DNA from: a virus
DNA length: 64,000 bases
IMG/VR virus record: IMGVR_UViG_3300014039_000036
Location: 1,904-65,903 of that record
Strand: one strand, 5' to 3'
The notes below the pieces were generated by a model, which did no database searches, was not told the origin of the DNA, and saw nothing but the letters and a program-made list of their open reading frames with translations. Every line of letters begins with the position of its first letter. Positions within the stretch are counted from its first letter, which is position 1. Shown here one piece after another: positions 1-58,646 of this stretch. The position numbers and the translations under genes are program-made.

Positions 1-135
1 CTTGCGCAGAGGATGTACGATCTGTGCATGGAAATCTCTCCTGAGATATTCGGGATGATGGGTCCCAACTGCAAGGTCCTCGGATACTGCCCCGAGGCCA
101 AGGGATGCGGAAGGGTTCCGAGGAGGGAGCAACGA
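1..135 (+). CDS. thyX: Flavin-dependent thymidylate synthase ThyX, C-terminal end (partial)
   Basis: LAQRMYDLCMEISPEIFGMMGPNCKVLGYCPEAKGCG resembles the ThyX C-terminal P-x-C...G-x-C-P-E-x-x-x-C-G tail and lies near dUTPase. Ends at CGA 133-135 overlapping the next ATG (standard code: 195). Confidence 0.6.
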
Positions 136-518
136 TGGAGGTATCCCACCTCTCTCCTAAGCAGAAGACCCTCCTCGCCATGGACAAGCGTCTGAAGATA
201 GCGAAGCTCGTGGGCGCCAATCCGGAGGGCATGACCGTATCGGAGGTGGTCGCGAAGCTGGACATGACGGAGGCTCAGGTGAAGTACGCGATGAACAATC
301 TGATCTCCTTGGGCGAGGTGGAGGTCGTGTACCGCAGGACCGGCAGGGACGCAGGACGCGTCAAGGTCTCCAAGGCTCTGGAGGACAATCCCGACGGGCT
401 GACGATAGGCGACGTGACCGCCTGGACGGGTCTCACCAGGGAGCAGGCCGTCACGGTGCTGGACTCCATGAGATGCCACGGCGAAGCGACGGAGACATAT
501 CGGAAGGTGAAGGAATGA
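135..518 (+). CDS. Tandem HTH DNA-binding protein
   Basis: Two repeats of GxTxxEV(A)xxxxxTxxQ(V/A)xxxLxxL, an HTH-like pattern. Confidence 0.55.
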   Translation: MEVSHLSPKQKTLLAMDKRLKIAKLVGANPEGMTVSEVVAKLDMTEAQVKYAMNNLISLGEVEVVYRRTGRDAGRVKVSKALEDNPDGLTIGDVTAWTGLTREQAVTVLDSMRCHGEATETYRKVKE

Positions 519-925
519 TAAGCGAGTTCGGAGAGGACCTGATGCCCCGCAGGAGGAATCGGGGAGATGCGGGCTACGATGTATGCATGCCCGAGGATGC
601 GCACCTGGAACCGGGAGCCGTGCACGTGTTCGACACCGGGATCAGGCTGGAGGACGGGGACATCGCCGATGACGAGTTCCTCATGATGGTCCCGAGGTCC
701 AGCATGGGCTTCAGGTACGGCATGATGTTCTCCAATACCGTCGGGATCATCGATGCCCGCTTCCGCGACACGATGAAGATGAGCATCGTCGTGCAGAAGC
801 CCTGCGACCTCAGGAGAGGCGACCGCGTGGCGCAGCTCATCGTCTGCAGGTTCGGGACCATCCGCGGGGAGATCCCGCCCGAAGGCGAGAGGAACGGCGG
901 CATCGGGTCCACGGGAGTGAGACGA
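515..925 (+). CDS. dut: Trimeric dUTPase
   Basis: Motifs DAGYD, PRSS, NTVGIID, RVAQL, RNGGIGSTG. Ends GSTGVR then CGA 923-925 overlapping the next ATG (standard code: 979). Confidence 0.92.
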
Positions 926-2803: not shown

Positions 2804-3235
2804 ATGGCCGACCGCAAGGGCAGGAAGGCGGACCGCACCGCCTCCGCCCTCTACCAGAGGCCCGTGTGGTACGACGGGTGGCTTCCCGATCTGATAGATC
2901 AGGAATGGCTGAAGGACATCCTCCTGGGCCGCGCGACGTTCAGTCCCGGATTCGAAGGGGATGCCGTCGGGGATGCACGGAAGCTGTATCTGAAGATGAT
3001 AGAGGCGGTCACGGACTGCATCTTTGTCACGGAGGACATCATGCTGAAGCCCGACTACGTCTCCGTGCCGTGCACGGAGGGCACTCTGTGGACCATCAGG
3101 GTGTTCCTCTATGCGGGGGATGTGAACCTGGGCGCGGTGGACGACCTGGAGGTGCAGGGCACCGTGATGAGGATCTACTCGGGATACATGGTGCTGACCG
3201 TGGGTGTGAAGGAGAGGAAGAATGGATCTCGATGA
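2804..3235 (+). CDS. Hypothetical protein
   Basis: Coherent ORF ending in tandem CGA-TGA (3230-3235). Confidence 0.65.
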   Translation: MADRKGRKADRTASALYQRPVWYDGWLPDLIDQEWLKDILLGRATFSPGFEGDAVGDARKLYLKMIEAVTDCIFVTEDIMLKPDYVSVPCTEGTLWTIRVFLYAGDVNLGAVDDLEVQGTVMRIYSGYMVLTVGVKERKNGSR

Positions 3236-3677
3236 TGTGGACAAGAGCAGGGGGTCCGATTGGGACTCCCTCAGAGGCATATGGCGCGGCATCTACAAGC
3301 GTTGCGACAACCCCTCCGCGAAGGACTACGCCCACTACGGCGCGAGGGGCATCAGGATGTGCGAGGAGTGGTACGACTTCGAGGTCTTCTACGAGTGGGC
3401 GATGACCCACGGGTACCGCAAGGGGCTCACCATCGACAGGGTGAACAACAACCAGGGCTACAGGCCCGGGAACTGCCGCTGGGTGACCCGCAAGGCGCAG
3501 GCCAACAACAGGACGACCGCGAGGATGTACACCATAGACGGCCATACCAAGTCCCTCACCCAGTGGTGCAGACTCTACGGCATCCCGACGTACGTCGCAT
3601 GCCACAGGATGAAGGACTATGGGTGGAGCGTGAAGGATGCCCTCACGACTCCTGTAGGAGAGAAGAGACAGGAGCGA
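3222..3677 (+). CDS. Free-standing HNH-like (homing) endonuclease
   Basis: W..I..RC.NP...Y..YGARGI..C.EW..F..F..WA...GY...LTIDRVNNNQGY.P.NCRWVT...QANN. CGA at 3675-3677 (standard code: 3713). Confidence 0.8.
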
Positions 3678-8750: not shown

Positions 8751-9170
8751 CTATGCCTCCGCTCTGAGACTGTATGTCTTATGCCCGGGCTTGCCGGTGC
8801 ATTCGATCTCGTGCATGACGTCCAGGGCCATCTGGACCTCGTATCTCGTGAACCCGGTGGCCTCCACGAGGGCCATCAGGGTGGACGGGCTCTGTATGGT
8901 GGAGCGGACCGCGTCCTTGCACTCCTCCGACACCGCGCACCATTTGGAGCCTATCTCCTCGTAGAGCAGGCGCTTCTCCTCGGGAGTCCCGTTGAGACGC
9001 ACCGCCGACGGAGCACGTTCCCACTCCACCAGGGGGGTGTCCACCGACGCTATGATGCTCTGCACCGATCTGGGGAGCATGTTGAGCCTCCACGCCAGCT
9101 CCCTGATGGTCACGAATCCCTCCTCTCCGCACAGTTCCTGCCACACCTTGAAATCGTTCCTGTTCATCAT
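8751..9170 (-). CDS. Double-HTH protein
   Basis: VTIRELAWRL... and TLMALVEATGFTRYEVQMAL. Ends TAG 8751-8753; if TAG is read through, an in-frame CGA follows at 8739-8741. Confidence 0.6.
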   Translation of the reverse strand: MMNRNDFKVWQELCGEEGFVTIRELAWRLNMLPRSVQSIIASVDTPLVEWERAPSAVRLNGTPEEKRLLYEEIGSKWCAVSEECKDAVRSTIQSPSTLMALVEATGFTRYEVQMALDVMHEIECTGKPGHKTYSLRAEA

Positions 9171-9799
9171 CGGTACCTCGGACGCCTCGCCTGCCTGCCT
9201 TCGATTCCCATGTTCATGTTCTCCTTCTTCCAGAGGTTCTTGTCCGTGTAGGACGGGTCCTTCGTGCCCTCTATCGTGCACTCCGATGCGGGCATGGCCC
9301 TGATGCTCTCCGCCAGGGTCCCCTCCCTCGGCTCCCCTGCTTCGTTGACGGCGGAGCTGTAATCCTCGACATAGCGCTTCGCGTTCTCGGCGATGCGCTT
9401 CGCCACATCCTCCACCGTAGGCGGGAACGTGTCCCATTCCGCTTCGACATCGAGGATGTCGAGGGTCCTGTACAGCGCGGGACGCATGAAAGGATTGGGC
9501 ATCGCACCGTGCTCCATGACCATGCTGTACACCTTGTCCGCATAGGCTTCGGAATAGCCTCTGGCGGCGGCCCAGTCCCTGAACTTCTCCCTGGTGAGGG
9601 TGATCTTCGGATTCTTGACTCCCATGGGTCCGCGCTTGGTGTGGTCCGCAGGCCTGGTGCCGAACTCCACGTATGCGGCGTACGGAGCATCGGCCACCAC
9701 GACCCATTCGTCCAGCAGGCCCATCTCCTCCAGACGCTCCTTCAGAGCCTTCTCGATCTCGTCACGGAGCCGTGCCTCGTCGATGACCACCTCGCTCAT
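9167..9799 (-). CDS. HK97 gp10-like neck/tail-completion protein
   Basis: APYAAYVEFGT and PNPFMRPA motifs; ends CGA-TGA, with the CGA overlapping the next ATG. Confidence 0.7.
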   Translation of the reverse strand: MSEVVIDEARLRDEIEKALKERLEEMGLLDEWVVVADAPYAAYVEFGTRPADHTKRGPMGVKNPKITLTREKFRDWAAARGYSEAYADKVYSMVMEHGAMPNPFMRPALYRTLDILDVEAEWDTFPPTVEDVAKRIAENAKRYVEDYSSAVNEAGEPREGTLAESIRAMPASECTIEGTKDPSYTDKNLWKKENMNMGIEGRQARRPRYR

Positions 9800-11538: not shown

Positions 11539-14034
11539 TTAAAAATCTCTTTTCGATGAGAACACCCTGCGACTCCTCGGGCTTTCACCTCCCTTCGACG
11601 GAGTCACACCTCCTTTGGCTTCGAAGACGCGTGCTGTAGCGTTGATGAAGAACGGTGTACTACAATAGCGTACAGCGTCAAGGCAATTCCCTACTAATGT
11701 CTTACAGGCGAAGAAATCATGCGCCTCATCCACTGTGAGATCATAGACATACTCGAAACGTCTGGTCGATTCAACAGCCTTTATCTTTTGAAGCCGGCAT
11801 TTCTTTGCCAGTTCCACGGAGTCTGAGCTGAGCCCCACATGTTTCAGAACAGGTCCGAGTCTTGTAGTATTTGTTTGTCTTGAAAGTCCCTCCACATATG
11901 ACACAAACGCGTTCCTCGTCATCGACCCCGGATGCTCTACGGGCTGCAGATTTACAGGCATTTGAGCAGAATTTTCCATGACCTGGCTTGGCCATATACT
12001 CTTTTTTGCAATATTGGCATATGTGTTCGACCGGTTTGAGATTCTGTGCGACTTGTTTTCCATGTTGGACATGCCACTCGTGCCCCTCTTCGGAAGCATG
12101 CCACGCTCTGCACAGTGATTGTTGTTTAGAATTGAGGTCCTGCATGGTTTTGCGCCTATCCTCTCTACGCTCCTGCGACCAGGGATGTCTCTGCATATGT
12201 TCTGCGCGTGTGAGACATTCGAGATTGGAGATATCGTTGTTGTCTGGATTCTCATCGATATGATGGATTTCATAGCCCTTTGGAATAGGCCCGTTGTATT
12301 GTTCCCAAATATATCTGTGTAATAATATACACTTGTATCCATCATATCTTCTGAAATACACGCGCATGTCACGGGCTTTTGCATCAGGATATCTGGACCA
12401 GATATACCCGTCATACTCGATACGTTCGCTTTTTGCATTTTCTGAACGGGGTCTTGCCATTGGATTACCTCATCATATACCGTAAGACATCCAAGACACT
12501 TAAGCCCTTCCATCGTCATAATCGGATGGTCTTTCGTTCCTTCCAACACAGTACCATTCTCGAATTCTACACGCCATATCTCCGCCGGCAACGGACGGGC
12601 GATACCTGCGGCCAGCACCTTCCTGTAGCCGAGATGGGTCAAGACCATGTCCCCGACCTCGATGTCCTCGATAGGCACCTCTCCGTGATCGGTGATCACC
12701 ATGGTGCCCGCTACAAGACAATGATCGAACTCTTTGATCGGTTTTTCAAGCCATACCCCATCAGCTGAACGATCATACGCGTAATTCTGCAGCTCTATGA
12801 GCGTGTTCCTGCACGATTGATGGACGTGCCATTTGAACGACTGGAGCCTCTGGATACCGTTCTTCAGGGAGTCGGGACCCTTCAGAGCGGGACGGATGGC
12901 GGGAAGCGCCCATGTGATCGGTATCTGGTTGCCGTGCTCGTCGATGGTCGCCTCGGTGAGCCCTCTCTGGAGCTCGCTGATGGACTTCGGCTCCGCGGCG
13001 TCCGCCCAAATAGTCTCCTTGCCGTAGCCCATGGCGCAGATGCGCTTGGCGATGGCGAGGTTGGTCATTCCGCGGTCGTACATCTCGTCGAACACCCACA
13101 GCTCCCTTGCTCCGAGGTCGAAGAACACCGCCACGAAGGCGTTGTACGATATCGAGTACCCGAAGTCCAGTCCGAAGGAGAGCACTCCGCGGGGGTGCTG
13201 CTCTATGACCTCCTTGATGTCGAAGGCCTCCTCCTGCCAGTTCTCGTAGATCAGACCCTCGGCGATACCCCAGTCCCCGTCGCACACGATACGGGCGAGA
13301 CGCGGAGCGTCCTTGTAGAGGGCCATGTACTGCGCCCTGTCCACGTCGGAGAGATGCTCGTTGCATCTGAACGTGGTCGTTATCGCGAGGGTGTCGGGAC
13401 GGGGATGGTCGAAGAACCTCGCCTTTATCCACGAGGTGGCGGACCATGGGTTGAACGTCCCGGTGTACTGCTTCCACAGATACGGCGGAAGGTCTCCGCG
13501 TATGGACATGGCCATGGTGTCGAAGTCGTTCTCGTTGCCGAAGTCCGCGAACTCCTCCAACCACACCCAGCAGAGGTATCCTTCGGACACTCCGACTGAT
13601 GCCAGCTTGAGAGGGTCGTCCATTCCTCTGAACAGGATGACCTGCTCGTTGGGGCGGGACTCGGACTTGCGGTGCGTCATCCTCAGATTGGACGGCGAGA
13701 CCTCCCAGCTGTCGTGCAGGTACAAGCGGTTGATGGCCCACTCCAGCGTGGCGAACACCGAGTCGCGGAGGGTGTTGGTCTGCTTCTTGATGACCAGCAG
13801 ATTGGCCTCCGGATAGCGCTCCAGATGCCAGATGAACCACAGAGCGGCGGTGTAGGACTTCTTGGAACCCTTGGAGCCCTTCACCATGCGGTAGAGGTCC
13901 TTGCTGTTCCAGAATTCGTCGTATCCCTCTCCGATGAGCCTGCGGAGGGAGATGATCGGCCTTCCGTCGGGACCTATGGGGTCGCCGTAGCGGGTGACGG
14001 GCGCATCGCTCGGAGCGATCGCTGTACTCGGCAT
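11539..14034 (-). CDS. terL: Terminase large subunit (PBSX-like) containing an intein
   Basis: Walker A-like KGSKGSKKS, WLEEF (Walker B), TFNP, GLDFG, and DH[intein]CLDAVRY nuclease motif. Start 14034 has an upstream GAAGGAG RBS. Confidence 0.92.
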   Translation of the reverse strand: MPSTAIAPSDAPVTRYGDPIGPDGRPIISLRRLIGEGYDEFWNSKDLYRMVKGSKGSKKSYTAALWFIWHLERYPEANLLVIKKQTNTLRDSVFATLEWAINRLYLHDSWEVSPSNLRMTHRKSESRPNEQVILFRGMDDPLKLASVGVSEGYLCWVWLEEFADFGNENDFDTMAMSIRGDLPPYLWKQYTGTFNPWSATSWIKARFFDHPRPDTLAITTTFRCNEHLSDVDRAQYMALYKDAPRLARIVCDGDWGIAEGLIYENWQEEAFDIKEVIEQHPRGVLSFGLDFGYSISYNAFVAVFFDLGARELWVFDEMYDRGMTNLAIAKRICAMGYGKETIWADAAEPKSISELQRGLTEATIDEHGNQIPITWALPAIRPALKGPDSLKNGIQRLQSFKWHVHQSCRNTLIELQNYAYDRSADGVWLEKPIKEFDHCLVAGTMVITDHGEVPIEDIEVGDMVLTHLGYRKVLAAGIARPLPAEIWRVEFENGTVLEGTKDHPIMTMEGLKCLGCLTVYDEVIQWQDPVQKMQKANVSSMTGISGPDILMQKPVTCACISEDMMDTSVYYYTDIFGNNTTGLFQRAMKSIISMRIQTTTISPISNVSHAQNICRDIPGRRSVERIGAKPCRTSILNNNHCAERGMLPKRGTSGMSNMENKSHRISNRSNTYANIAKKSIWPSQVMENSAQMPVNLQPVEHPGSMTRNAFVSYVEGLSRQTNTTRLGPVLKHVGLSSDSVELAKKCRLQKIKAVESTRRFEYVYDLTVDEAHDFFACKTLVGNCLDAVRYCSTPFFINATARVFEAKGGVTPSKGGESPRSRRVFSSKRDF
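11686..12720 (-). mobile_element. Intein (345 aa) in the TerL nuclease motif DH|CxDAxRY
   Basis: Block A CLVAGTMVIT, block B GTKDHPIMT, block F VYDLTVDEAHDFF, block G LVGN followed by +1 Cys. Penultimate residue is Gly rather than His. Confidence 0.9.
11771..12460 (-). CDS. HNH endonuclease with zinc-ribbon repeats, nested out of frame inside the intein
   Basis: LHRYIW...GPIPKGYEIHHIDENPDNNDISNLECL...H; CQYC/CSNAC/CVIC/CSETC clusters; own GAGGT RBS 6 nt upstream. Confidence 0.85.
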   Translation of the reverse strand: MARPRSENAKSERIEYDGYIWSRYPDAKARDMRVYFRRYDGYKCILLHRYIWEQYNGPIPKGYEIHHIDENPDNNDISNLECLTRAEHMQRHPWSQERREDRRKTMQDLNSKQQSLCRAWHASEEGHEWHVQHGKQVAQNLKPVEHICQYCKKEYMAKPGHGKFCSNACKSAARRASGVDDEERVCVICGGTFKTNKYYKTRTCSETCGAQLRLRGTGKEMPASKDKGC

Positions 14035-14512
14035 CGATGCATTCTCCTTCGACCGGGAGCGGTTCGTCATCATCGTCGTCATCGTCATCGGACGATGCGC
14101 TCATGGTGACCACCTCGGAGGCCGTCATCACGCCGTTCTCTATGCGGACGTCCTTGGCGGACGTGATGGCCAGGTCGTCCACGAACGTGGGCGCCTCGAC
14201 CTGCATGAGCTGCTCCTTGACAGGCTCCAGGCCGCCGTACTTGAACAGGAACTCCGCCTTGCGCTGGTCCCCCTGCACGGCATCGGCCGCGAACTGCATG
14301 ATGATACGGGTCCTGATGTCCACGTTGGCGTTCTTGTACGCCTTGAGAGGCCTCTGTCCGTCCACGTAGTCCATCGGACCCTCCTTCACCGGCGATGCGA
14401 GAACGGTGTTGATTATGTTCTGGATGTCGCGGCGGTTGTTCTTCTTGGCGAGGGCCCTCTCCGCCAGCACCTCCGTGGGAGTGTATAGGCTGGGTGCATC
14501 GGACATGGGCAT
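14006..14512 (-). CDS. Putative terminase small subunit
   Basis: Immediately upstream of TerL; helical protein with acidic tail; CGA at 14006-14008 (standard code would run to 12773 inside TerL). Confidence 0.55.
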
Positions 14513-14979
14513 CGCCTGTTGAACGCTCCGTCCTTCTTCATCCTTCCGAGAGGAGTCAGCTGTCTGCACCTTAGGCATCTGTCCGGAAGAGTTTTCAGGG
14601 ACATCCCGTATTTGAGCTTGCATATCGGGCAGGTCCACCCGTCGTCGGGGTTGTCCACGATCTCCCCGCCTTCGAAGTTCTCTCCGTAGAACGAGAAGTA
14701 CATCTCCGCGAGATTGTCGCTCAGGGCGAACTCCCTGGCGCACATATCGTAGTCTCCCTTGGTGGCGCGGTACTTCTCCATCTCCGCATCCTGTCCCGAA
14801 CGGACCGTCATCCTCTCGATGCCGCGCTTCTGCTGCCTGTAGATGTCCAGCCTGAGCCTGTTGGCGACCTCCGGGTCCACCCAGCGCTCCAGTAAGCTAG
14901 CCGGCATAATCCTCAGCTCGTACGGCGTGAAGGCGTGATGCATCCGTTCCCTGAATTCCTCCGATGCCCGCGATGTCAT
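14512..14979 (-). CDS. Hypothetical protein with C-terminal Zn ribbon
   Basis: CPIC...CLRC; ends at CGA 14512-14514 overlapping the next ATG (standard code: 14413). Confidence 0.65.
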
Positions 14980-20053: not shown

Positions 20054-20256
20054 CGTCTGATCCCCCTCAGGCATTTGTCGTAGCGTGCTTTCATCACGCG
20101 CTTCATCATCTCGCCTATCGTCATATCCTTATCGTTCGGGTCGTCCTCTTCGGACTCCCCCTTGCACGCATCCATCACGGACTCGCGCACCGGCTCCTCG
20201 GGCTCTCCATCGTCGCAGACGGCGATGCTCACCTCTATCCTCTCAGCCTTCTCCAT
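20053..20256 (-). CDS. Small acidic protein
   Basis: Ends at CGA 20053-20055 overlapping the ATG of the giant gene. Confidence 0.55.
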
Positions 20257-31338: not shown

Positions 31339-31462
31339 CGGTGCACAAGCAGTCGATTCCATGTCGCACTCGCAATGTCGCAATATACTATGCCGCCTGC
31401 AGAATACTACGTATTCTGCAGATTCGGTGAATGTGAGAAGATATAAAAGGGTTTGGTAAGGC

Positions 31463-31520: not shown

Positions 31521-31526
31521 GGCGTT

Positions 31527-42091: not shown

Positions 42092-42328
42092 TTACTTCAC
42101 CATGGAATGCTTGCGGAGGCGGTTGACCTCCGCGACCCGTTCGCTGTGGTAGCATCCGCAGGAACGGGTCTCTCCCCTTCTCAGATGGAACTCCTGGACG
42201 TCGCGCACCCTTCCGCAGTCGCAGATGCACCGGTAGTACCTGCTCTTCCCTCTGTATCCCAGGTCCGACTCGACGGTCAGACGCCCGAATCTCTGACCGA
42301 CGAGGGACCGGTTCCTGAACCTGCTCAT
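42092..42328 (-). pseudogene. Truncated endonuclease remnant (single FGRLTV..CICDCG..SCGC module)
   Basis: Homologous to the repeats of 37577-38627; no nuclease domain follows. Confidence 0.55.
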
Positions 42329-44553
42329 CCCTTGTTCAGCGCGTCCAGGATGCGGCTGGTGCTGTCCGAGAGGGACACCGACTTCATGATGCCGAAGGAG
42401 TACGTCGTGGTGCACTCAGGGTATCTCCTCGTATGGGAGGAGAGCATCAGCTTCTGCGGAAGGGTCCCGGAGCCGCAGACGGACCCGTTGGTCAGGACGA
42501 TCTCATCGGGTTCATCCGTGAGGGTGTCGAGCATGGTCGGCTCGTCGAAGTACGGGAACCACTCGTAGCCCTTGCCGTCGGCGGTCCTCTGGACCTCCTT
42601 CAGCTCGAAGGTGATGCTCTGCTGGGGCTCCTTCAGGTACTCGATGTAGTTGCGTGCGAACGCCTCGGCGGCCTCCGATGCGCGTGTCGAGATCCCCGTC
42701 TCCTCGTTCGTGTCCACGGTGTACGTCAGCTCGGGGATCGTCAGGGCCTCGGTGCGCTCTCCGAACTTGGCGACCGACGAGCTGGACTCCCTGTCGCCTC
42801 CGTTCTCGTAGTAGGGTCCCATGTTGTACGACCCTCTGCCTTCTCCGGTCTCGGGATTCAGATACGAGCACCTGACGGACACGGAGTTCACCACCGTGTC
42901 CGCGCCTTCGTCCCCCAGCTCCACCTCCCCGGCGGTACGGCCGTACATCGGATCGGATTCCGACGAGGGGTACAGGTCCAGGTCCTCGGCTCCGTCCGAT
43001 ACTCTGTTGAGGACCCTGCGGGTGCAGTTCCTCACGTGCATGGTGTCGTCGGCGAACCATATGCGGCAGCCCATGAGCATGGCGCACACCTGCAGCGCGT
43101 ACCACAGGTTGGTGTCCTGCTCGAACGTCAGAACGCCATCGTACTCGTTCGATGTACGCGATGCGGGGTCCATGTCCAGATAGGACACCTGGATGCCGTA
43201 GTCCGCCCTGGTGGCGAGTATGGTAGCTAGAATGGACCTCGGAGTGCCCGTCAGAGAGCCTCCCTGGATGGTGCTTCCTCTGAACCTCTCCGCATCGCAG
43301 TAGGCGGTGATGGTGAACCTCTTGCCGGAGTACTTGCACTTGGTGACGGTGAACACCCCGCGGCCCAGCGCGTCGTTCAGCACCACCTTCGTGACCCCTG
43401 CGAGGATGCCGTTGGCCTCCGCCAGCTGGGACGCCACGTAGTACAGGCGCTTCTTGGGGATGACGAGCTGGACCATCTCGAACGGCTCCTCCGGGCCTCC
43501 CACGATCTTCATGGAGGAGATGCAGCTCCTCGTGCGGCCCTTGTCGTCGGTGTACATCAGGTCGAAGTAGTCGCTTCCCGTGCTGTCCGACATCTGGACC
43601 CTGAACCTGGAGCGGGAGATGGGTTGGGACCATGCGCCGTTGCCCTCGGAGGAGATGTCATCGTCGCCGTACAGGTTCTTGAAGCTCGACTCGTATTGAG
43701 CATATGCAGTGATATCGCTGGAGAATTGATATCTGTTGCCGGTAATCAGATAATCCCCGGTTCCATCTTCTGTAAGACACCAGCCTTTGAAGGTATATGT
43801 GCACAGCTGACCGTTCACGACCTCGGGGTCCTTGACGCACCGGGGCATCCCCTCGTACCATATGTTCACACCGTTCGTGTAGTTGTACGATAGATTCCCT
43901 ACGACCATCCTCCCTCCGCACGGGTCCAGGGTGATGACATGGGTCTGACTTCCGCTGCTCTGCTCTTTGATCGTCAACCTCCAGGAAAGCGATACATTGG
44001 AGCCGTCCGTAGCTTCTGCATATAGGGTGGAATATCCTGCCGAAACGCCGGTGACCTGGCATGTGGTATCTCCGGTCTGAGAGAATTCGCAGTGTTCCGC
44101 CCCGCTTGTGATGGATATGTTCAGCTTCTTGTTCGCCGCATCTGTCGGAAAGACGGTGATATTGAATGACCGGGTGCTGCCTACATAGATGTTCTTATCG
44201 CCTACCAGAGTCAGACTGGATACGGGCATCGGATCGTCCTGATCGATCACTTCGTAACCGAAGTTGTCATCTCCCTCGGTATACTCCCCTTCCTGGCTGG
44301 TGTATTCGAGGATGAAGATGAATTTCGCAATGCCGGTGGATGTAGGCGTTCCGCTGATGGAGACCGTATACGATACGTCCCCTCCCGCCTCATCGTACAC
44401 CTTGGATCCTATGGAATAGGACATCCCCTTGGTATCCGACTGAGAGCTCAGATACGGCTCCTTCAGGATCGTTTTGATTCCGGAATAATAGATCTTCCTG
44501 GTATCGGAGAACGGCTCTCCTACTCTTATCGGAGAATAATAGCTGTTCGCCAT
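42325..44553 (-). CDS. Tail hub/tip protein with Ig-like and Flg_new domains
   Basis: Start MANSYY at 44553; TVFPTDAANKKLN (Big_2-like); VITLDPCGG...YTFKGW...Y (Flg_new); C-terminal hub-like region. Confidence 0.65.
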   Translation of the reverse strand: MANSYYSPIRVGEPFSDTRKIYYSGIKTILKEPYLSSQSDTKGMSYSIGSKVYDEAGGDVSYTVSISGTPTSTGIAKFIFILEYTSQEGEYTEGDDNFGYEVIDQDDPMPVSSLTLVGDKNIYVGSTRSFNITVFPTDAANKKLNISITSGAEHCEFSQTGDTTCQVTGVSAGYSTLYAEATDGSNVSLSWRLTIKEQSSGSQTHVITLDPCGGRMVVGNLSYNYTNGVNIWYEGMPRCVKDPEVVNGQLCTYTFKGWCLTEDGTGDYLITGNRYQFSSDITAYAQYESSFKNLYGDDDISSEGNGAWSQPISRSRFRVQMSDSTGSDYFDLMYTDDKGRTRSCISSMKIVGGPEEPFEMVQLVIPKKRLYYVASQLAEANGILAGVTKVVLNDALGRGVFTVTKCKYSGKRFTITAYCDAERFRGSTIQGGSLTGTPRSILATILATRADYGIQVSYLDMDPASRTSNEYDGVLTFEQDTNLWYALQVCAMLMGCRIWFADDTMHVRNCTRRVLNRVSDGAEDLDLYPSSESDPMYGRTAGEVELGDEGADTVVNSVSVRCSYLNPETGEGRGSYNMGPYYENGGDRESSSSVAKFGERTEALTIPELTYTVDTNEETGISTRASEAAEAFARNYIEYLKEPQQSITFELKEVQRTADGKGYEWFPYFDEPTMLDTLTDEPDEIVLTNGSVCGSGTLPQKLMLSSHTRRYPECTTTYSFGIMKSVSLSDSTSRILDALNKG

Positions 44554-45011
44554 CGTCTCGTCCTCCTGCACTTGCAGTGCATCGTCCCCGTGGAGAACGT
44601 CACGGAACCGTACACGCACTGCACGTCCCCTGCCTTGAACCTGTACGAGAACGACCTCACATATCCGTTGATCTCCCTGCTGGGCATCCCCGGCAGCTCG
44701 CGGTCGAGGTTGTATCTCAGCGTGAACCCGTCGGTCTCCGCCTGCCAGCGGTCCATCGCCAGATCCATCTCCTCCACCCATCTGGGCGTGGACCAGTCGG
44801 TGCTGTCGATGGCGTTGTCGTCCGGCGAATCGGGAGACCTGCGCACGTAGTCGAACGTGATCTCGCTGTTGCTGGAGGTCTCTATGGCGAACGTGTCGCG
44901 CGTGGACCTGCTGACTATCGGGAACTTCGATACGGACTTGCTGAAGCTCTCGGAATAGCTCGTGATGATCCCCATATCTATCTCTATCCCGTCGTATTCG
45001 AGCGTGAGCAT
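44553..45011 (-). CDS. Tail component
   Basis: Paralogous to the N-terminus of the upstream tail gene; ends at CGA 44553-44555 overlapping the next ATG. Confidence 0.65.
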
Positions 45012-45015
45012 GGTA

Positions 45016-46764
45016 TCGCTTCAGGAACGAGACGATCACAGCGCCGTCTCCCGCGTAGTCTCCGCACTCTCCGCCGGACCCGGCTCCTCCGCCGATAGCG
45101 CCTCCGTCGTCGCGGTAGCCCTTGCCCCACTCGTACATATTCCCCGGGACCTTGCCGTTGCCGCCCTTGGAGACTATCTGGATCGTTCTGGAGTCGTTGC
45201 TCGTATCCGACACGTAGATGCCGCTTCCTCCTTTGTACAGCCTCTTGTTGCCTACGGAGTTGTCCGATATCTCGATGAGATACCAGTACGGCCCCTCTTC
45301 GATTATAGTGGCCTTGAATCTGGTTATCGGATAGAGGAGATCATCCTTTACGGATTCTACATCGATATTGGTCGACGCATACCATTTATTATGGGAATGA
45401 AGCACTTGTCCGTGATTCCACTCGAAAGATATCGAGGGGTCCGTGGTCAGCTCCTCTGAAGCCTTGAGCGCACCGACGGTGACACGCATATTCACATCCG
45501 CGGCTCCGCCTCCTGATCCAGGGAATGGATCGTCCCTCTGCGGCTTATCTATCGGCACACCCGCCTTTCCCGGAATGCCTACGCTTCCGGAACCGTCATG
45601 GGCTATCCCTTGGACAGTACCGCCTCCCGCGTTGTACCTGGAACCTCCGACGCCCCCTTTGTTCCCTGGATTGGCGGCATCTCCGTCGTCTCCGCCGTGC
45701 GCGGTCATGGTGCCCAGGCTCTTGCCGGTGGTCTTCAGGACGGATACCGAGGTGTCCTTGGACCTGTCCACCTTGAACATGCCCATCCCCAGCTGCACCT
45801 TGACGGCATCCCCCTGGCTCAGACCAGACACCAGCTTGGATACGGCTTCTCCGGACCCGCCTGCTCCGCCAGGATAGTACTCGCCGTACATCGCGCCGGC
45901 CTTCCCTCCCGCACCTACTGCGACGATACGCGCTCTGGTGCATCCTGCAGGGACTATGATATCGGGTGCATCGCGTGCCAGGAACCTCGCATACACCGCC
46001 ACCGGGTCGCTCACGACGGCGTAGAACACCGCGCCGTCCATGGAATCCGATATGATCACCTTGGACCCCAGGTCGTAGGTCATACTCCCGTTCCTCCACC
46101 CTGTGATGGCTCCGCCGTTGGTCACCATGGCGGACTGCGCCATGGTCGGATTGGGGAGGTACGCCTGGGTGCCTGCAGGATACGAGCGCGTGAATCCCTC
46201 GTCGGAGCTGTTCGCCTTGAACGTCAGCGTCACGCGGTCTCCCGCGGACTCCTCGCTGAAGACACGGGCCTCCAGCAGGTTCATGCTCCACGTCATCTGC
46301 TGGACTCCGAATCTGGGAGAGATGGAGCCTGTGAGGAACACGTTGGTATCGATGGCAGGGATCAGCTCGGATGCATCCTCTCCGGGGTCCCCCGAATCGG
46401 GGATGTAGTGGAAGTCCAGCCCTCCCTGGATGCGCCAGCCGGAGCCGTCCTGCTCGTAGGACAGGTTCTGCCAGTTGTCCCACATGTGCATGAAGCCCTC
46501 CCACCACTTGCCGTTGGACCACCTGGACGGGTCCGAGGACCTGTCGTCGTAATCGTCCGGAGTGACACGGGAGCAGGACATCGATATGGTGCGGGTGGTC
46601 CCCAGGTCCATGACGAAGTTGTTCCACACGCCGTACACTATGGTAGGTATGTTGGATATGGACGCGTTGTAGGTGACCTCCAGGGCCGTCACGTTGTCGA
46701 TATGGAACGTCGTCAGGTCTCCGCCCTTCTTCCAGCGCACGGAGAACTCCGCCTGCCCTGCCAT
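45016..46764 (-). CDS. Distal tail protein with glycine-rich domain
   Basis: IVAVGAGGKAG...GGAGGSG; ends GAVIVSFLK then CGA 45016-45018, 4 nt before the next ATG. Confidence 0.65.
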
Positions 46765-48119
46765 CGGAACGACCCCTTGAGCCTGCTGAACGATACCTGC
46801 TCGCTGACGATGTCCTGCACGTATCTCTTCAACTCGCTGTCGGTATATCCGTTTATCGTGATGTTGTATGTATTGGAACCTTTCATCCTGGACGCGGCGA
46901 AGGCATCCGCCTTGCTCTCCGGGACGATATGCTCCCCTTCCCCGCCCTCTCCGACGATGGCGAGGGTCCCCCCTTCTCTGGACGGCACATAGCCTCCTTC
47001 GGCGAATCCCGCGATGGACATCGCACCGTACGTTCCTCCGGCTCCTATCGCGAATCCTGCTCCCGCTCCGATCAGAGCACCTGCGGGAATGAGCAGATTG
47101 CCCAGGATGCTGGAGCCGCCTATCGTAGCTCCGATCTGAGCCGTCATGAGACCTACATAGAGCGATACGAACTCCTTGAAGTTCTCAAGGATCGTGGTCG
47201 CTACATTGAGGATGGTCGTTATGATCGCCTCTCCGTTCTCTTCCACGAACGTGCCCAACGTCACAAGGAAGTTCCCTATGCTTCCCACGATGCCCTTCTC
47301 GTCCTTCAGAGTCTCCCCTATATCGATGATGTACGAGGAGAAGACCTTGACTCCCTCTTTGATGGCGAACTCCATCATCTCTCCGAGGGACTTGCCCTCG
47401 AACTTGTCCCATATGTCCAGAACGGCGTCCACGAGGTCCAGAGTCGCGGGAAGGATGGTCTCCGCCAGCTTGTTGCCCAGAGGCATGAAGAAGAGCTGTA
47501 CTGCGAGGTTGAACAGGGACTCGATGGACTGCATCAGCGGAGACGACCGCTTCATGTAGCCGTAGATCATCTCCACGAATCCCAGGGATTGCGTAGCAAC
47601 GGACTTCAATCCGGAGGCTCCCATCTGGACCCCCTTCATGATGATGGGGGACCACTTCTCCTCCCATTTGGCATCGGCCCTGTCGTTGATGTCCGAATCC
47701 TTCTGACCGTACAGGTGCCCGGCCTCGTCGATGGCGCCTTTGGGGATGTCTCTGCGTCCGAATATATCGGTATCCGCGTTCACCACGCGCTCCACGTTGC
47801 CGGAAAGGCCCTGGACCTCCTTGGCGATCTCTTCCAGAGTCTTATTCTGGTCCTCGGTGGCGTGCACCGCCTTCTCGGTGGCTTCGACGACCTTGCTGTT
47901 CGCGCCGGCGTCGCCCCCGCTGCCAGGGGTCACCGCCCCGCTCAGATCCGCTCCCGATGCGCCCGACTCCAGGCCTTTCTTGGCGGCCTCCTCGAAGACC
48001 TTCTGCAGCCTCGGTTCCAGGATGGCGACCAGCTTCTCGATCTCCTCGGAGGAGTACCCGGCATCGAAATCCACCCGGGCCGTCAGGTTGATCACGATTC
48101 TGTTGTCGTTCTCGGCCAT
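46764..48119 (-). CDS. Tape-measure-like protein (451 aa)
   Basis: Helical, hydrophobic Gly-rich segment; FAEGGYV...GEGGEGEHIVP motif common at TMP C-termini; follows the chaperone; ends at CGA 46764-46766 overlapping the next ATG. Confidence 0.65.
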
Positions 48120-48333
48120 CGTCGCACCTTCATTCCGAGCATCGCCGCCATGAGCTTCACCTTGCGCTTCCTGATACCGTCGTCCACGGCGAGCATGAGC
48201 TGGATGTCCTCGTCGTTCAGCTTCCCGAACCCGTCGGGGTCTCCTCCGTTCAGGAGATACAGCCCCCTGGCGTAGAGCCATGCGGATTCCCCGGACAGCC
48301 CTCCGTCGGAGGCTATGGAGTTCTGGAAGAGCC

Positions 48334-49883: not shown

Positions 49884-50381
49884 TTATCGATTCTTAATAC
49901 AGCCGTCCTGCACCATCTCGTTGACGGGAGAACCCATCCCTGCAACGCGCAGAGGCGTGTTGTGCGATGTCATGCGCACATCCAATGTGCACGAGTAGTA
50001 TCCGGACAGGTCGTTGGTAAATCTCTCCGCGGTCATCTCCAGATACGTATATCCGCCCAGCCCGGTCTTCCCCGGCCTGCGGTTCGCCATCAGGATGCGC
50101 TCCACCTCCTGCACGACCTCCAGGAAGTTCTCCCTGAACGTGGCATCGATCTTGATGCCCAGATAGGACGTCCTCTCCAGCTGGTTGTAGTCCACCGATG
50201 CGATGCGGGTGGACCTGTTTATCATATAGACGAATATGAACGCGTAGCGCGACGACGTGACCTGCGAGCGCACATCGTAGGCGATGGACGGCTCCTTGCC
50301 CGGGGGCAGGGACCACTCGCGCTTCAGAAGATCGTACAGGACCTTGGCATCGTCCGTGAACAACGGGGTCTCGGGGATCAT
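49884..50381 (-). CDS. Tail terminator/neck protein
   Basis: Position and size; ends in tandem CGA-TAA (49884-49889). Confidence 0.55.
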   Translation of the reverse strand: MIPETPLFTDDAKVLYDLLKREWSLPPGKEPSIAYDVRSQVTSSRYAFIFVYMINRSTRIASVDYNQLERTSYLGIKIDATFRENFLEVVQEVERILMANRRPGKTGLGGYTYLEMTAERFTNDLSGYYSCTLDVRMTSHNTPLRVAGMGSPVNEMVQDGCIKNR

Positions 50382-51339: not shown

Positions 51340-51630
51340 TCGGTCCAGGCTCTCCAGGACCTTTCTGACGTCATCGACGCTGCGGACCACCTCGTAGACG
51401 CCGCCGGCGGACATCACGTCCTCCCGGCATTGGGTCTGGAATCCGCTGACCCTGCCCGTAGGGGTCTTGACCTCCAGTCCGACCCATCTGCCGCGGTAGC
51501 AGCAGACGATATCGGGCACCCCGGGGTGTCCGAAGGCCCCTCCCTGGGCACGATAGTACCACAGGTCCGGGGCCAGGGTGCGCAGGTATCTGCAGATGGC
51601 GTCCTTTATCTCGCCTTCGGGCGTCGCCAT
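51340..51630 (-). CDS. VRR-NUC domain nuclease (Holliday-junction resolvase-like)
   Basis: GVPDIVCCYRGRWVGLEVKTPTGRVSGFQ...GGVYEVVRSVDDV; CGA at 51340-51342 directly followed by a terminator hairpin. Confidence 0.88.
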
Positions 51631-54600: not shown

Positions 54601-55965
54601 TTATAGGAACAAACCCTGCGAAGCCCAATCCGACATCATCCTGTCGGTGATGTCCTTCCCCGATCTGACGGTCTCCCACGCCTTCGCCTCCACCGTCTTG
54701 GAGGTGCTCAGGAAGTAGTAGACGCATCTGGACTCCTGGCCCTTGCGGTAGGTCCTGGCGAGGGCCTGCGTGAGCAGCAGGGAGGAGAACGTGGGTTCGA
54801 ACAGGATCATGGTATGCGACCGGAACAGGTCTATGCCGACGCCTCCGCTCTGATACTGGCAGATCAGCACGTCCCCTTTCCCGGACTGGAAGTCCTTCCA
54901 CGTCGGGGTCTTGGAGCGGCCGTCGAACACCAGGACCTTCTTCCCGGCGGCCTTCGCCACGCGCTCCGCGCGGTCGATGCTGGCGCGATAGGTGCAGAAC
55001 ACCACCACGGCATCGTCCGTCGCCTCCAGCAGGTCCGTGAGGACCGCGTCCTTGGAGCACGGAAGGTCCATGACGGTGCCGTCCTCCCTCTTCAGGGAGC
55101 CGGAGCATATCTGGAGCATCTTGGGGTACTGTCCCCCCGCGGCCTTTATCTCCACCCCGTACCCGCGGGTGTTGCCCCTCCTCATGTCGTCGTACGGCTT
55201 CTTCGCGCTCAGGATGCACGGCATGACCGATTCGGACCTCCCGGGCATGTCGAAGCAGTCCTCCAGACGCGCCACCACCGCATGGTCCTCCAGGAGCCTC
55301 CTGCACTCCTTCACATGATATGAGGAGGGTTTCCCCCAGTGGTCGTAGGTAGCGACGTAGCGTTCGCAGAACGTCCTCCAATCGGGGTACACGTCGGGAT
55401 CGAGGAACTTCATCTGTCCGTAGAGCTTGGAGAAGTCCTCGGCTCCGCCTCCTCCGGACACGGGGGTGCCCGACAGCAGGATGCGGTGCGATGCCAGCCT
55501 GGACAGCGTCAGGCAGGCCTTGGTCTGCTTGGAATCATGGCTGCCTATGCAGTGGGATTCGTCCACTATGACGGCCCCCCAGCGCTTGTCCACGTCCTCG
55601 CGGAGCAGGGTGGTCTTCTTCACCGACGTCGTGCCGTTGCGGTGCTTCACGGTCCTCTTGTCCACCCTGTAGGTCTTCTGGAAGGACACCACCTTCACGC
55701 GCTCCTTGAGAGCGAGGATGTCGGCGGGGCCCACACCCTCGAAGTTGGCCATGGTGTCGAACGACGCGATCCAGTTGGGGACCAGGGATGCGGGGCACAC
55801 CACCAGCGCGTCCGGGATGCGGCGCAGCCTGAACTGCTGGATCAGCCACATGAGGGCCGTGGCGGTCTTGCCGAGGCCCATGTCGTAGCTCAGGAGGATG
55901 CTCCCGTTGGCGTTGATGGCGTAGATGCCGTCCTTCTGATGCTCTGCGAGCTTCCACTTGCCCAT
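54601..55965 (-). CDS. SNF2-family helicase
   Basis: DMGLGKT, LVVCPASL, IVDESH, LLSGTP, SGGVGIDL, QALARTYRKGQ. Confidence 0.92.
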   Translation of the reverse strand: MGKWKLAEHQKDGIYAINANGSILLSYDMGLGKTATALMWLIQQFRLRRIPDALVVCPASLVPNWIASFDTMANFEGVGPADILALKERVKVVSFQKTYRVDKRTVKHRNGTTSVKKTTLLREDVDKRWGAVIVDESHCIGSHDSKQTKACLTLSRLASHRILLSGTPVSGGGGAEDFSKLYGQMKFLDPDVYPDWRTFCERYVATYDHWGKPSSYHVKECRRLLEDHAVVARLEDCFDMPGRSESVMPCILSAKKPYDDMRRGNTRGYGVEIKAAGGQYPKMLQICSGSLKREDGTVMDLPCSKDAVLTDLLEATDDAVVVFCTYRASIDRAERVAKAAGKKVLVFDGRSKTPTWKDFQSGKGDVLICQYQSGGVGIDLFRSHTMILFEPTFSSLLLTQALARTYRKGQESRCVYYFLSTSKTVEAKAWETVRSGKDITDRMMSDWASQGLFL

Positions 55966-55973
55966 GGTGCTCC

Positions 55974-58646
55974 TCGGGACAGACGGACCAGCTGCAGGGC
56001 GTCGTCTCCGCGCATCACCGCGAAGCCCTCCGACAGGAGCATGTCCGTGTCGCTCTGCGACAGCGAGCTCCGCTCTATCACCGTGCCCTCCGAGTACCCC
56101 CGGCCTTCGGCCCATGCCCTCACCAGCTCGGTCAACGTCCCGCGGTCCACGTCCTCGTCCTCCTTCGGATCGGAGGGCGGAGCATACGGCTCCGACGTCC
56201 CTACGGGAACGTCCATGGGGACGTAGCCGTCGTCTCCGTACACCGTCACGGGATCCACATCGCACGACTCCGACAGCCTCATGGCATCCTTCCACATGGC
56301 ATCGCGATGCGCGCGACTGACCAGCGGGTCCCTCCCCGCATCCATCCTGCGGAGGGACTCGGCGCGGTCCCTGGCGGACGCCTCCCTCAGGGCCCTCCTG
56401 CGCTTCGCCTCCGTGTACTCGGGATCCACGCACATATCCTCCAGCTTCACCGGGGCAGGTGTCTTGAACGCCTCCTCTATGCGCTTCTCCTCGTCTTCCG
56501 GATATGCGACGACGGGAGGCTCCTCCTCGACCGGATATGCGACATCCGCCTCCTCCGCGGGCTTCAGCAGCTCCGCGTCGATCTCGGCGTACTTCCGCTC
56601 CATCTCCTCGCTGAGACCCTCCTCCTCGGCAGGCTCTTCGAGGTCGTCCTCCATGACGACGGGCTCCACGGGAGCCTCGGCGGCGACGCCTTCGGGAGCG
56701 ACAGCGAAGGGCATGTCCGCCTCCTCCCTCTCGGGGATCCCGGGGAGCAGGTCGTACGGGTCCTCCGCGGGCTTCTGCGGGACCTCGTCCCTGCGGAGGT
56801 CCGACGGACCGTCGTCATCGTCGTCGCGCCTGACGGCCTCGGGAAGGTCCTCCGCGGGCCTCTGCGCCGCGTAGTCGTTCCCATCGACCATGTTGAACGT
56901 GCATCTCTCGGGCAGGCGTCCGGGCTCGTGCACGCGCCTGTACACCCTGGTGGTCTTCCCGTCCACCTTGACGGGACTGGGGACCCTCTCCCAGCCGGGG
57001 CAGTACGATATCCACTGCTTCCATGCCTTGCTGACCTCGTCGGGGATCTTGGAGAACGGAGGCTCGATGCCGAATATCCTCTGGAACACGGTCAGACGCG
57101 ACACCATGGCCCCTACATGGGAGAATCCGTTCATGGGGTCGTCCAGATAATCGGCGATCATGTCCGAGTCCCTCTCGTCGGCGCAGAACGCCTGCATGGC
57201 CCTGGACAGCTCCGTGCTCTCCGCATCGGCGATGTACCACTTGTGGCCCTGCCTGTACATCTCCAGCGCCTCGGCCCATATCTGCTCCACGATATGCTGG
57301 AGCTCCTCGGGCCTTCCGTGAGAGGGGATGACCATGCCGTTCTCCCTCTGGACGTTCGGGTTGCAGTACACGGGATAGAACCTTCTGGCCCCTGTGGGGT
57401 CGGTGAAAAGGGTGTCGGTATTGGACGACGCGGCCATGATGAAATGCCTGGGATAGACGTTGTCGTGCCTCGCGTACGCCTTCCTCATATGGTCCGACGA
57501 CTGGGAGATGAACGCCTTCAGGGTCCCGAGGTCCTCGGTGTCCAGCTGCACGCCCTCTCCCAGCTCCACGATGATGGACCCGCGGACGGAGTCCAGGAAC
57601 CTCTTGGGGTCGCTGAAGTCGGTCGTGGTGTCCCTGTACCACTCGTCCTTGCCCGCGAGGTACTTCAGAGCCGTGCCTTTTCCTATTCCCTGCGTTCCGA
57701 TGAACACGGGGACGATCTCGTGCTTGACCTCCTCATAGGCGCGTGCCACGGCTCCCAGGAGCCACGCCTCGCCGACGGTGGCCAGATACTCCGCCTCCCT
57801 CTGCAGCCCGTTCTCCAGCCCTCTCAGGGCGGGAGCGGTGCCTCCGAACAGATCGCGGAAGAGCGTGGGGATGCGACGGACGCCGTCCCAGGTGAAGCTC
57901 TCTATCCACTCCCTAAACTGGTTGCGGTGGTTATCTGCGAAAAGAACGTTCAGAGCCTCGTCGCGGACCGACATGGACGGCATGCGGCCCTCCACGTCCA
58001 TGTCTATGAGCCTGCGCTCCACGTTGTCATGATAGATGCACATCAGCTCGTCGCTCATGGGACGGATGCCGGAGTCCCTTCCGAACACGGAGGTGTCCAC
58101 CATCTGCCTCTCGTTGAGCTCGTCGTACCAGAAGCAGTCCTTCAGGTCCTTCCTGCCGTACATCGCGGGCAGCATGTCCACCAGGGCGGACGTGAGCTGG
58201 GGGGACTTCATGCGGACGGGCTCGGCCACGATGCCCTTCGCGGGAGCGGGAGCGGGAGCGGTCGGGATGTCCTCCTCGTACACGGGAGCGGGTCTTCTGC
58301 GGACGATATTGTCCTCCTTCGCGGGCACCTTCGCCTGCACGGCCTGAACCCCGGGGATGTCCATCCACCACGCCTCGCGGGACCTCCTGAAGCCCTCTGC
58401 GGGCTCTATCGAGGGCGACGGCCTGAGAACGATCTCCCCTCCTCCGTTCAGGATGAGGGTCACGGTGCCGTCTATCACGAGATACGTGGGCGACGATATC
58501 GAAGCGTAATCCACGACGCCCTTCTGCGTGCACACGCCGAAGTCGCCGATGATCATGTAGTCTCCGCGAGGCCCGTAGATGATGCCGTCACGGGATGCCT
58601 TCAGGCCCAGGCTGAAGATCGATTCGAGGAATGCGTCGGAATTCAC
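55974..58646 (-). CDS. VirE (virulence-associated E)-type SF3 helicase/primase
   Basis: GTQGIGKGT, IVELGE, LKAFIS..D..RKAY, ASSN...TDPTGARRFYPV; long acidic tail; CGA at 55974-55976 followed by GGAG RBS and the next ATG. Confidence 0.85.

Follow-up and report, generated by a model that had tools for sequence, protein, structure and literature searches.

Does CGA, an arginine codon in the standard genetic code, serve as a stop codon in a virus and its host? The question is raised by 64,000 nucleotides of viral DNA, bases 1904–65903 of the single 65.9-kb contig IMGVR_UViG_3300014039_000036 (hereafter the window; positions below are those of the window, with + and − denoting strands). An earlier note, made from the letters of the window alone, proposed that translation ends at CGA. 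We examined codon usage and gene ends in the window, in related viruses, and in genomes of the candidate host order. Our analysis indicates that the window probably comprises most of the genome of a tailed dsDNA virus (Caudoviricetes) of gut Methanomassiliicoccales and that, in the code of this host lineage, CGA is likely no ordinary arginine codon and ends translation. The use of CGA as a gene end within such a host-lineage code appears well supported by the comparisons described below.

The trinucleotide CGA is common in the window, which has a G+C content of 58.5% and contains 1,318 copies on the + strand and 1,742 on the − strand. Codons were counted in a self-trained set of 57 genes (19,115 codons). 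CGA accounts for 0 of their 1,040 arginine codons, whereas 1,663 copies lie out of frame. Arginine is encoded by AGG (428), CGC (295), AGA (160), CGT (91), and CGG (66). The earlier note had seen by eye that several genes lack internal CGA and that CGG is a sense codon for arginine, and both observations hold across the full gene set. Even if CGA is assumed to make up only 1.6% of arginine codons, the probability of finding none is 5e-8. Open reading frames (ORFs) of 1,656, 1,227, 995, 849, and 823 codons contain no CGA at all; shadow frames of 300–600 codons contain 20–40 each. All long genes of the window are open under translation table 11, that is, without in-frame standard stops.

When CGA is added to the stop codons, the genes of the window tile without long overlaps, and 16 of 56 gene ends (~29%) fall at CGA, compared with 29 at TGA and 8 at TAA. 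TGA thus dominates the gene ends, and TAG closes only 2–3 of the 56 predicted genes. CGA ends occur in early genes (ThyX, dUTPase, primase) as well as late genes (head, tail). Each of the 22 positions at which the earlier note had placed a CGA in a particular frame and context proved to carry it. CGATG stop/start overlaps are found at 133, 923, 9170, 14006, 14512, 20053, 44553, 46764, and 48119. Tandem stops consist of CGA-TGA at 3230 and 9170, CGA-TAA at 49887, and CGA-CGA at 48122/48119. At 2088, 2800, 45016, and 55974, CGA lies 1–8 nt ahead of the next ATG, with GGAG between the two at 55974; the CGA at 51340 is followed by a hairpin (GGGGC...GCCCC).

Avoidance of CGA alone would not give gene ends, and we therefore compared the ends of orthologues, tabulating pairs between the window and eight related virus contigs. 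Two of the contig labels, L007 and L008, denote Caudoviricetes sp. vir335 (BK063680.1 / NC_134205.1), a virus from baboon faeces whose recorded host is Methanomassiliicoccales. At the CGA ends of six window genes (those for the 582-, 451-, 152-, 174-, and 96-aa proteins and ThyX), related viruses have TGA. The TGA of the orthologue is offset from the window CGA by 0–1 residue, or by up to 3 residues for the 96-aa protein. When TGA, TAA, and CGA stops of all orthologues are considered together, their ends at these six sites fall at most ~8 residues from that of the window gene.

Three of these genes lie side by side on the − strand. Part of this region appears under the standard code as a 1479-aa ORF, which the earlier note had split into two genes with a third between them. 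This division is borne out: the ORF resolves into a 582-aa glycine-rich tail-fibre-like gene (45016–46764, CGA 45016–45018), a 152-aa gene in another frame (44553–45011, CGA 44553–44555 within CGATG), and a 764-aa tail protein gene that forms the second half and ends in TGA (42325–44619). In relatives, each of the three products has its own orthologue and the gene order is unchanged: a tape-measure-like protein is followed by the fibre protein, a 152–160-aa protein, and a ~540–910-aa protein (537–912 in the four closest contigs). Orthologues of the 764-aa protein are separate genes in L001, L002, L003, L006, and L007. The six homologues of the 582-aa protein are 551–596 aa long and all end at the same aligned residue (...VIVSFLK in the window versus ...IASFLE, ...IIYFFE, and others); the four whose contigs were examined all have a TGA stop. 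The standard code would add 897 codons to the window gene. For the 152-aa gene, the L002 orthologue has TGA at the identical residue, and the L001 and L003 orthologues have CGA. The 451-aa protein encoded next to the fibre gene (46764–48119, −; CGA 46764–46766 within CGATG) is one of six orthologues, all of which end ...KGSF. The stop that follows is CGA in the window, L002, and vir335 and TGA in L001, L003, and L006.

The other three genes behave similarly. The 174-aa ORF ends at CGA 14512–14514 (−; CGATG); its vir335 orthologue ends in TGA, and the alignment reaches the last residue of both proteins. The 96-aa gene ends at CGA 51340–51342 (−), ahead of the G+C-rich hairpin, and its orthologues have TGA within 1–3 residues in L001 and L006 and CGA in L002. 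The left edge of the window cuts through the ThyX gene, whose CGA at 133–135 (+) overlaps an ATG (135–137) that is in frame with a MarR-like gene. The standard code adds 20 codons to ThyX, and the ThyX part of a vir335 protein has TGA 1 residue from the window CGA end. Swaps in the reverse direction were also observed. Three TGA or TAA ends of the window correspond to CGA in relatives, with tails of 0–31 residues. The TAA at 52567 corresponds to CGA in L001, in which the next standard stop lies 413 codons further on.

These comparisons bear on the proposal that the code is unchanged, CGA being a strongly avoided arginine codon and genes continuing to the next standard stop. Such a reading draws some strength from the presence of tRNA-Arg(UCG) in candidate hosts and from three window genes in which a standard stop is the very next codon, a difference of one residue. 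It is contradicted by the orthologues, whose TGA lies at or beside the residue before CGA. Read-through would also create extensions of up to 897 and 411 codons that run across the frames of other genes and are rich in CGA, a codon not found once in 19,115 codons of the gene set. The lengths of such tails differ between orthologues (17, 43, and 7 codons for the 451-aa protein). Moreover, read-through truncates or hides the conserved start of the next gene. In L002, the fibre gene truly starts at an ATG that overlaps the CGA of the upstream gene (CGATG at 9843), and the fibre protein (P0001) loses 52 N-terminal residues in the standard-code gene call. We consider simple avoidance very improbable.

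The remaining CGA ends lie on both strands. On the + strand, the dUTPase gene (515–925) ends at CGA 923–925 within CGATG. Positions 5–128/129 of the Pfam dUTPase profile align to residues 10–133/136, and the vir335 dUTPase has TGA within 3–5 residues of the window end. CGA closes a 74-aa ORF without orthologue evidence at 1289–1291, a 116-aa ORF at 2088–2090 (2 nt ahead of the next ATG), and a 138-aa ORF at 2800–2802 (1 nt ahead of the next ATG); a 142-aa ORF ends in the tandem CGA-TGA, with CGA at 3230–3232. A 151-aa HNH-like ORF ends at 3675–3677. Its vir335 orthologue is 55% identical and ends in TGA, the tails being 10 and 5 residues long. On the − strand, a 209-aa head-module gene has the tandem CGA-TGA (CGA 9170–9172) that overlaps the next ATG. 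The 210-aa ORF upstream of the large terminase (TerL) ends at CGA 14006–14008 (CGATG), and the standard code adds 411 codons to it across TerL. The CGA at 20053–20055 ends a 67-aa ORF and overlaps the start region of the 1656-aa gene, and that at 36077–36079 ends a 68-aa ORF whose vir335 orthologue (83% identical) has CGA at the same residue.

Further along the − strand, a small ORF is closed by the CGA-CGA tandem at 48119–48124, which overlaps the start codon of the gene for the 451-aa protein. CGA also occupies this stop/start overlap in the L001 counterpart. A 164-aa gene ends in CGA-TAA (CGA 49887–49889), a tandem that is kept in a relative with 95% nucleotide identity. At 51617–51619, CGA ends a 133-aa gene to which the standard code adds 82 codons with four more CGA. 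The VapE-like primase/helicase (890 aa, 55974–58646, −; Pfam VapE) ends at CGA 55974–55976, 8 nt before the ATG of the SNF2 helicase, and the L002 gene has a CGA end at the same residue.

The relative with 95% nucleotide identity is represented by contigs of 83 and 87 kb assembled from human gut samples, one of them Hadza. In the 14.5 kb that align, 5/5 CGA ends are kept, and ~3,900 codons contain 0 in-frame CGA despite 274 synonymous and 121 non-synonymous codon differences. Standard-code calling extends its VapE protein (P0012) to 925 aa compared with ~890 aa. The SNF2 gene (L012 12787–14067) is thereby shortened to 426 aa, as opposed to 454 aa elsewhere. Across the related contigs, standard-code gene calls contain 0–4 in-frame CGA versus 338–526 out of frame, and the residual in-frame copies lie near called 3′ ends, except at codon 86/207 in L001 and codon 45/248 in L006. 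In vir335, the first 52 annotated coding sequences contain 9 CGA among 788 arginine codons. Six of the nine are among the final 11 codons of their annotated coding sequence, and every affected coding sequence has its first CGA in the last third. The deposited annotation of vir335, in which CGA is read as arginine, overruns several coding sequence ends. No relatives were detected when IMG/VR was scanned with the 582-aa protein or with VapE.

Could the CGA sites be TGA in the molecule that is translated, either through C-to-U editing or through a systematic sequencing or assembly error? CGA and TGA are one transition apart, which makes such a conversion conceivable. The pattern, however, recurs in Logan runs, two ENA assemblies, NCBI metagenome-assembled genomes (MAGs), the third-party annotation (TPA) record BK063680, and a complete 1.67-Mb genome. 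Because independent assemblies, produced by different studies with different assemblers, and a published TPA record agree, an assembly artefact is unlikely. An error would not purge CGA from every sense position, copies out of frame are plentiful and unaffected, and editing of every CGA would place a stop inside the gene for the release factor aRF1 (see below). Taken together, we judge that conversion of CGA to TGA can hardly be the explanation.

The host of the window virus was approached through its relatives. Among GenBank phage records, vir335 is the best match of both TerL (45%) and the tail-fibre protein. The two viruses share syntenic head, tail, and replication modules, CGA avoidance, and CGA gene ends. 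They differ in that identity is only 30–85% per protein and in that vir335 has an 83-kb genome with a tRNA-Met gene, whereas no tRNA genes were found in the 64,000-nt window. Assignment to the tailed viruses is consistent with the Terminase_3 and Terminase_3C domains of the window and with orthologues of the vir335 major head protein, portal, prohead protease, and major tail protein. Two further relatives emerged from an alignment-based scan of GTDB species genomes. The first alignment (A1) gave nothing; the second (A2) identified whole contigs of 83.7 and 55.8 kb in two MAGs, G001:C1 (L010; CAVKKO010000001.1) and G002:C3 (L011; CAVIUM010000003.1). The virus contig is the largest contig of G001.

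NCBI lists G001 as 'Bacteroidaceae bacterium' and G002 as 'Lachnospiraceae bacterium'. Both MAGs contain aRF1 and mcrA and lack the bacterial PCRF release-factor domain, which identifies them as methanogenic archaea. A bacterial host, as the titles would imply, was rejected on these grounds, and the two MAGs look like mislabelled methanogen bins. Other routes to a host were less informative. An integrated copy of the virus was not found, all VapE homologues lying on contigs of ≤87 kb with no host flanks, and look-alikes of ThyX in the protein atlas were bacterial or viral and gave no host signal. G002 carries a CRISPR array next to cas1 (G002:C26:19351–21759; L131/L132), with 40 repeats of 28 nt (GTGGTCCCCGCGTGAGCGGGGGTGATCC) and 33-nt spacers.

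The cellular genomes show the same pattern as the viruses. CGA is absent from gene bodies in the 373 kb of G001, 339 kb of G002, and 400 kb of G032 that were examined, and 3.8%, 18.6%, and 3% of their genes, respectively, end at CGA. G032 (L223–L242) is a CGA-depleted genome in a single contig of 1,666,795 bp with ~55% G+C. Residual CGA in standard-code ORFs of the three genomes is concentrated in the first and last tenths, corresponding to upstream extensions and read-through tails. We then sampled 60 Methanomassiliicoccales genomes around the aRF1 gene and counted codons only within alignments to 13 reference proteins; all-versus-all homology of stop-to-stop ORFs was misleading, with conserved shadow frames and upstream extensions counted as genes. 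CGA is depleted in 13/60 genomes (1–3 CGA per 67–271 arginine codons) and used in 47/60, where it makes up 1.6–20% of arginine codons. In one host orthologue group, five genomes have a CGA end where seven others have a standard stop.

The share of genes that end at CGA is 0% in the G001 virus, ~10% in the G002 virus, 16% in vir335, 29% in the window, and 26% in its close relative. In the two MAGs, the share in the virus follows that of the genome with which it is binned (0% versus 3.8% for G001 and ~10% versus 18.6% for G002). This variation, from 3 to 18.6% in genomes and from 0 to 29% in viruses, suggests that sense CGA was lost first and that CGA ends spread later.

The parallel between genomes and viruses also bears on whether a virus-encoded factor reprograms termination, with CGA stops applying only during infection. 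Many ORFs of the window have no known function and could in principle supply such a factor. Arguing against this, the window has no tRNA gene, and a Pfam scan of 50 predicted window proteins revealed 0 members of the release-factor family and no release-factor-like domain. CGA avoidance and CGA ends are likewise seen in cellular genomes, and early genes (133, 923, 55974), which are translated before any viral factor, end in CGA. A viral factor is therefore extremely improbable as the cause. The earlier note had favoured a host-wide code on the grounds that early and late genes alike end in CGA, and the similar behaviour of cellular genomes strengthens that preference.

How might a host-lineage code with CGA as a stop operate? 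The earlier note envisaged loss of tRNA-Arg(UCG) together with changes in the NIKS and YxCxxxF motifs of aRF1, and neither part of that mechanism withstood examination. The tRNA-Arg(UCG) gene is present in all five CGA-free genomes examined (G001, G002, G032, G036, G040), as it is in the CGA-using sisters G048 and G060. Codon usage on the contigs that bear it matches that of the remainder of the genome. A mismatch at the 31:39 pair that closes the anticodon stem (A.A or C.A) occurs only in L079 (G002:C131) and L095 (G001:C116); G032, G036, and G040 have a normal pair, and the mismatch was rejected as a general feature. At position 37 of this tRNA, the five CGA-depleted genomes have G, and G048 and G060 have A, a sample too small to interpret. 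In aRF1, both motifs named by the earlier note are unchanged.

Two other features of aRF1 distinguish the depleted genomes. The residue three positions before the Tyr of YxCxxxF is Ala in 12/13 depleted genomes and Thr or Ser in 47/47 others. We take this stretch to be equivalent to positions 122–124 of eukaryotic eRF1, which have been implicated in the stop-codon specificity of ciliates. In addition, the aRF1 gene contains exactly one in-frame CGA in 13/13 depleted genomes, located between codons 11 and 81 at three alignment positions; the aRF1 genes of the 47 CGA-using genomes have 0–5 CGA at scattered sites. The CGA falls at a conserved arginine in three depleted genomes and at a variable Arg/Lys position in most others. 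CGA-using sister genomes have CGA at two of the three positions, so that lineages appear to have kept different ancestral copies.

As to the surroundings of the aRF1 gene, it is followed by an adjoining putative arginyl-tRNA synthetase gene, named by eye, in L015 (G001:C31:11838–15230) and at aRF1 loci of the order. In G001, the aRF1 stop overlaps the start of the next gene, and in G040, G019, and G009 the gene next to aRF1 is an orthologue of the same marker protein. The pairing of aRF1 with the putative arginyl-tRNA synthetase is also found in CGA-using genomes and is not specific, although such neighbours are striking where an arginine codon may have become a stop.

We propose that aRF1, the single class-I release factor of the host, probably reads CGA as well as UGA and competes at CGA with the retained tRNA-Arg(UCG). 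The single early CGA in the aRF1 gene might then exert negative feedback on the level of aRF1, by a logic like that of the UGA in prfB. The virus would contribute no decoding factor of its own and would simply match the usage of its host. One may speculate further that, in a clade of gut Methanomassiliicoccales and their viruses, CGA is an ambiguous, regulated fourth stop codon, involving an aRF1 with a Thr/Ser-to-Ala change, weak competition by the tRNA, feedback on aRF1, a rise of CGA ends from ~3% to >25% in some lineages, and viruses that track their hosts. We advance this fuller picture tentatively, as a possibility that falls somewhat short of an even chance.

A different route to the same gene ends is that CGA is an unassigned or very slow codon at which ribosomes stall, to be released by rescue factors of the Pelota/ABCE1 type or slowly by an unchanged aRF1. 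The unchanged recognition motifs of aRF1 and the presence of a Pelota-like gene are compatible with this possibility. So are the CGA ends of only 3–4% in G001 and G032, as expected early after loss of a codon, and the ability of yeast eRF1 to misread CGA already (PMC7379694). On the other hand, tRNA-Arg(UCG) is kept in every genome checked, and the codon is not obviously unassigned. Stalling and rescue would be costly at 19–29% of genes (G002, window virus), which include highly expressed late genes. CGA-TGA, CGA-TAA, and CGATG overlaps resemble ordinary stop usage, and the Ala next to YxCxxxF, which is specific to the lineage, is consistent with a changed factor. Stalling thus seems unlikely, although less so than the explanations rejected above.

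Several observations weigh against termination at CGA as part of a Methanomassiliicoccales code, or at least limit its certainty. Termination is deduced solely from comparison of sequences. The tRNA-Arg(UCG) genes of CGA-free genomes have normal cloverleaves, and their retention means that CGA could still be read as arginine to some extent. The NIKS motif, YxCxxxF motif, and GTE loop of aRF1 are intact, and the Ala/Thr correlation does not hold in one genome (G036) and is confounded by common descent. Where CGA directly precedes TGA or TAA (3230, 9170, 49887), the protein could carry an extra C-terminal arginine. The link of the window virus to its host is indirect, consisting of kinship with vir335, co-binned relatives, and shared CGA usage. 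Because G001 and G002 are bins, the presence of a virus contig in them is not proof of infection. Finally, comparison of the 39 G002 spacers with the window and its relatives produced nothing beyond chance matches of 12–16 nt.

Beyond its gene ends, the window encodes a recognizable set of viral functions. Pfam domains identify a large terminase with an intein, a reverse transcriptase of the diversity-generating retroelement (DGR) type, the VapE-like primase/helicase, an SNF2 helicase, and a YqaJ exonuclease, as well as a ParB-N protein, dUTPase, and a MarR-like regulator. The large terminase (849 aa, 11539–14088, −) has the domains Terminase_3, Terminase_3C, Hint, and Intein_splicing and contains 0 in-frame CGA. 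Its intein (approximately residues 457–798) is inserted where the nuclease domain ends. The terminase of vir335 has only 637 aa. The DGR (29557–33002, −) comprises three genes. The reverse transcriptase (323 aa, 29939–30907, −; Pfam RVT_1) ends at CGA 29936–29938, a 144-aa gene (29560–29991, −) shares 75% identity with a vir335 gene, and a tail protein of 491 aa (31530–33002, −) shares 65% with a vir335 'tail protein'. Between 48122 and 48729 (−), a 131-aa gene is followed by a ~70-codon ORF in another frame that has the CGA-CGA end, and then by the tape-measure-like gene. The layout of the 131-aa gene and the ~70-codon ORF is like that of the frameshift-expressed tail-chaperone pair of tailed phages, and L001 is arranged alike.

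The statement of the earlier note that no described code uses CGA as a stop is nearly right. Full-text literature searches yielded no paper that describes a CGA stop in Methanomassiliicoccales or in viruses of that order, and one 2026 preprint raises the possibility of a CGA stop elsewhere and leaves it open. It concerns two assemblies of Njordarchaeales, in which CGG encodes tryptophan and conserved domains contain no CGA (bioRxiv 10.64898/2026.04.02.715157). Like the genomes described here, these assemblies are archaeal and lack CGA at positions aligned to hidden Markov models. They come from marine vents, however, and tRNA-UCG is reported absent, whereas here tRNA-UCG is present, CGG still encodes arginine, and viruses are involved. 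Codetta-type methods cannot infer stops, and one study reports changes in the meaning of CGA only in low-GC bacteria (PMC8629427). A second archaeal precedent is the proposed code 34, in which all TAG encodes pyrrolysine in Methanomethylophilus and other pyrrolysine-using archaea (bioRxiv 10.1101/2024.09.30.615893). It represents another departure from standard stops in the same archaeal family; it concerns TAG, and the paper, which reports proteomes of Methanomethylophilus alvi Mx-05, makes no mention of CGA. In Saccharomyces cerevisiae, eRF1/eRF3 can misread CGA as a stop (PMC7379694). There, a factor of the eukaryotic/archaeal type acts on the UGA-like CGA, a plausible starting point for a change, but in yeast such misreading occurs at a low level and affects a rare codon whose meaning remains arginine. 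In the lineage studied here, CGA is purged from genes and forms a regular gene end.

If termination at CGA is confirmed, a sense codon would for the first time have been seen to turn into a stop in a cellular (non-organelle) genome and in its virome. A cellular lineage would have taken the sense-to-stop route at 47–61% G+C with the cognate tRNA gene kept. The viruses would be locked to the code, which might form a barrier to host switching and provide a new marker for host prediction. Standard gene callers and code-inference tools would mis-annotate such genomes, and the consequences are already visible in the vir335 record, in P0001 and P0012, in the SNF2 helicase called at 426 aa, and in two MAGs that bear bacterial names. 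A cultured relative exists within the family, which would allow the idea to be addressed at the bench.

Three well-known systems help to place this proposal. Bacterial prfB, which encodes RF2, contains in its early part an in-frame UGA through which it is autoregulated. The aRF1 gene resembles it in having one early copy of the codon that the factor is proposed to read (13/13 genomes). It differs in that aRF1 has no frameshift, and the bypass would instead be provided by tRNA-Arg(UCG) reading CGA as arginine. Stop-recoded phages read TAG or TGA as an amino acid, often with the help of phage suppressor tRNAs, and their genes, like those of the window, are mis-called under table 11. Whereas those phages convert a stop to sense, the window virus appears to have followed a sense-to-stop change, carries neither tRNA nor release factor, and agrees with the code of its host. 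To our knowledge, accepted code changes in free-living cells are stop-to-sense changes or amino-acid swaps, and sense-to-stop changes are confined to a few mitochondria. These organelle codes include table 2 (AGA/AGG in vertebrate mitochondria), table 22 (UCA in Scenedesmus), and table 23 (UUA in Thraustochytrium mitochondria). In each, as here, genes have no internal copy of a codon that ordinarily encodes an amino acid, and that codon instead stands where genes end. Those genomes are tiny, with a handful of genes, and the cognate tRNAs are missing. The present case involves an archaeal lineage with genomes of 1.3–2.4 Mb, viruses of 66–87 kb, hundreds of genes, and a tRNA gene that has been kept. 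The comparison points to a sense-to-stop change whose direction and setting have not been established outside organelles.

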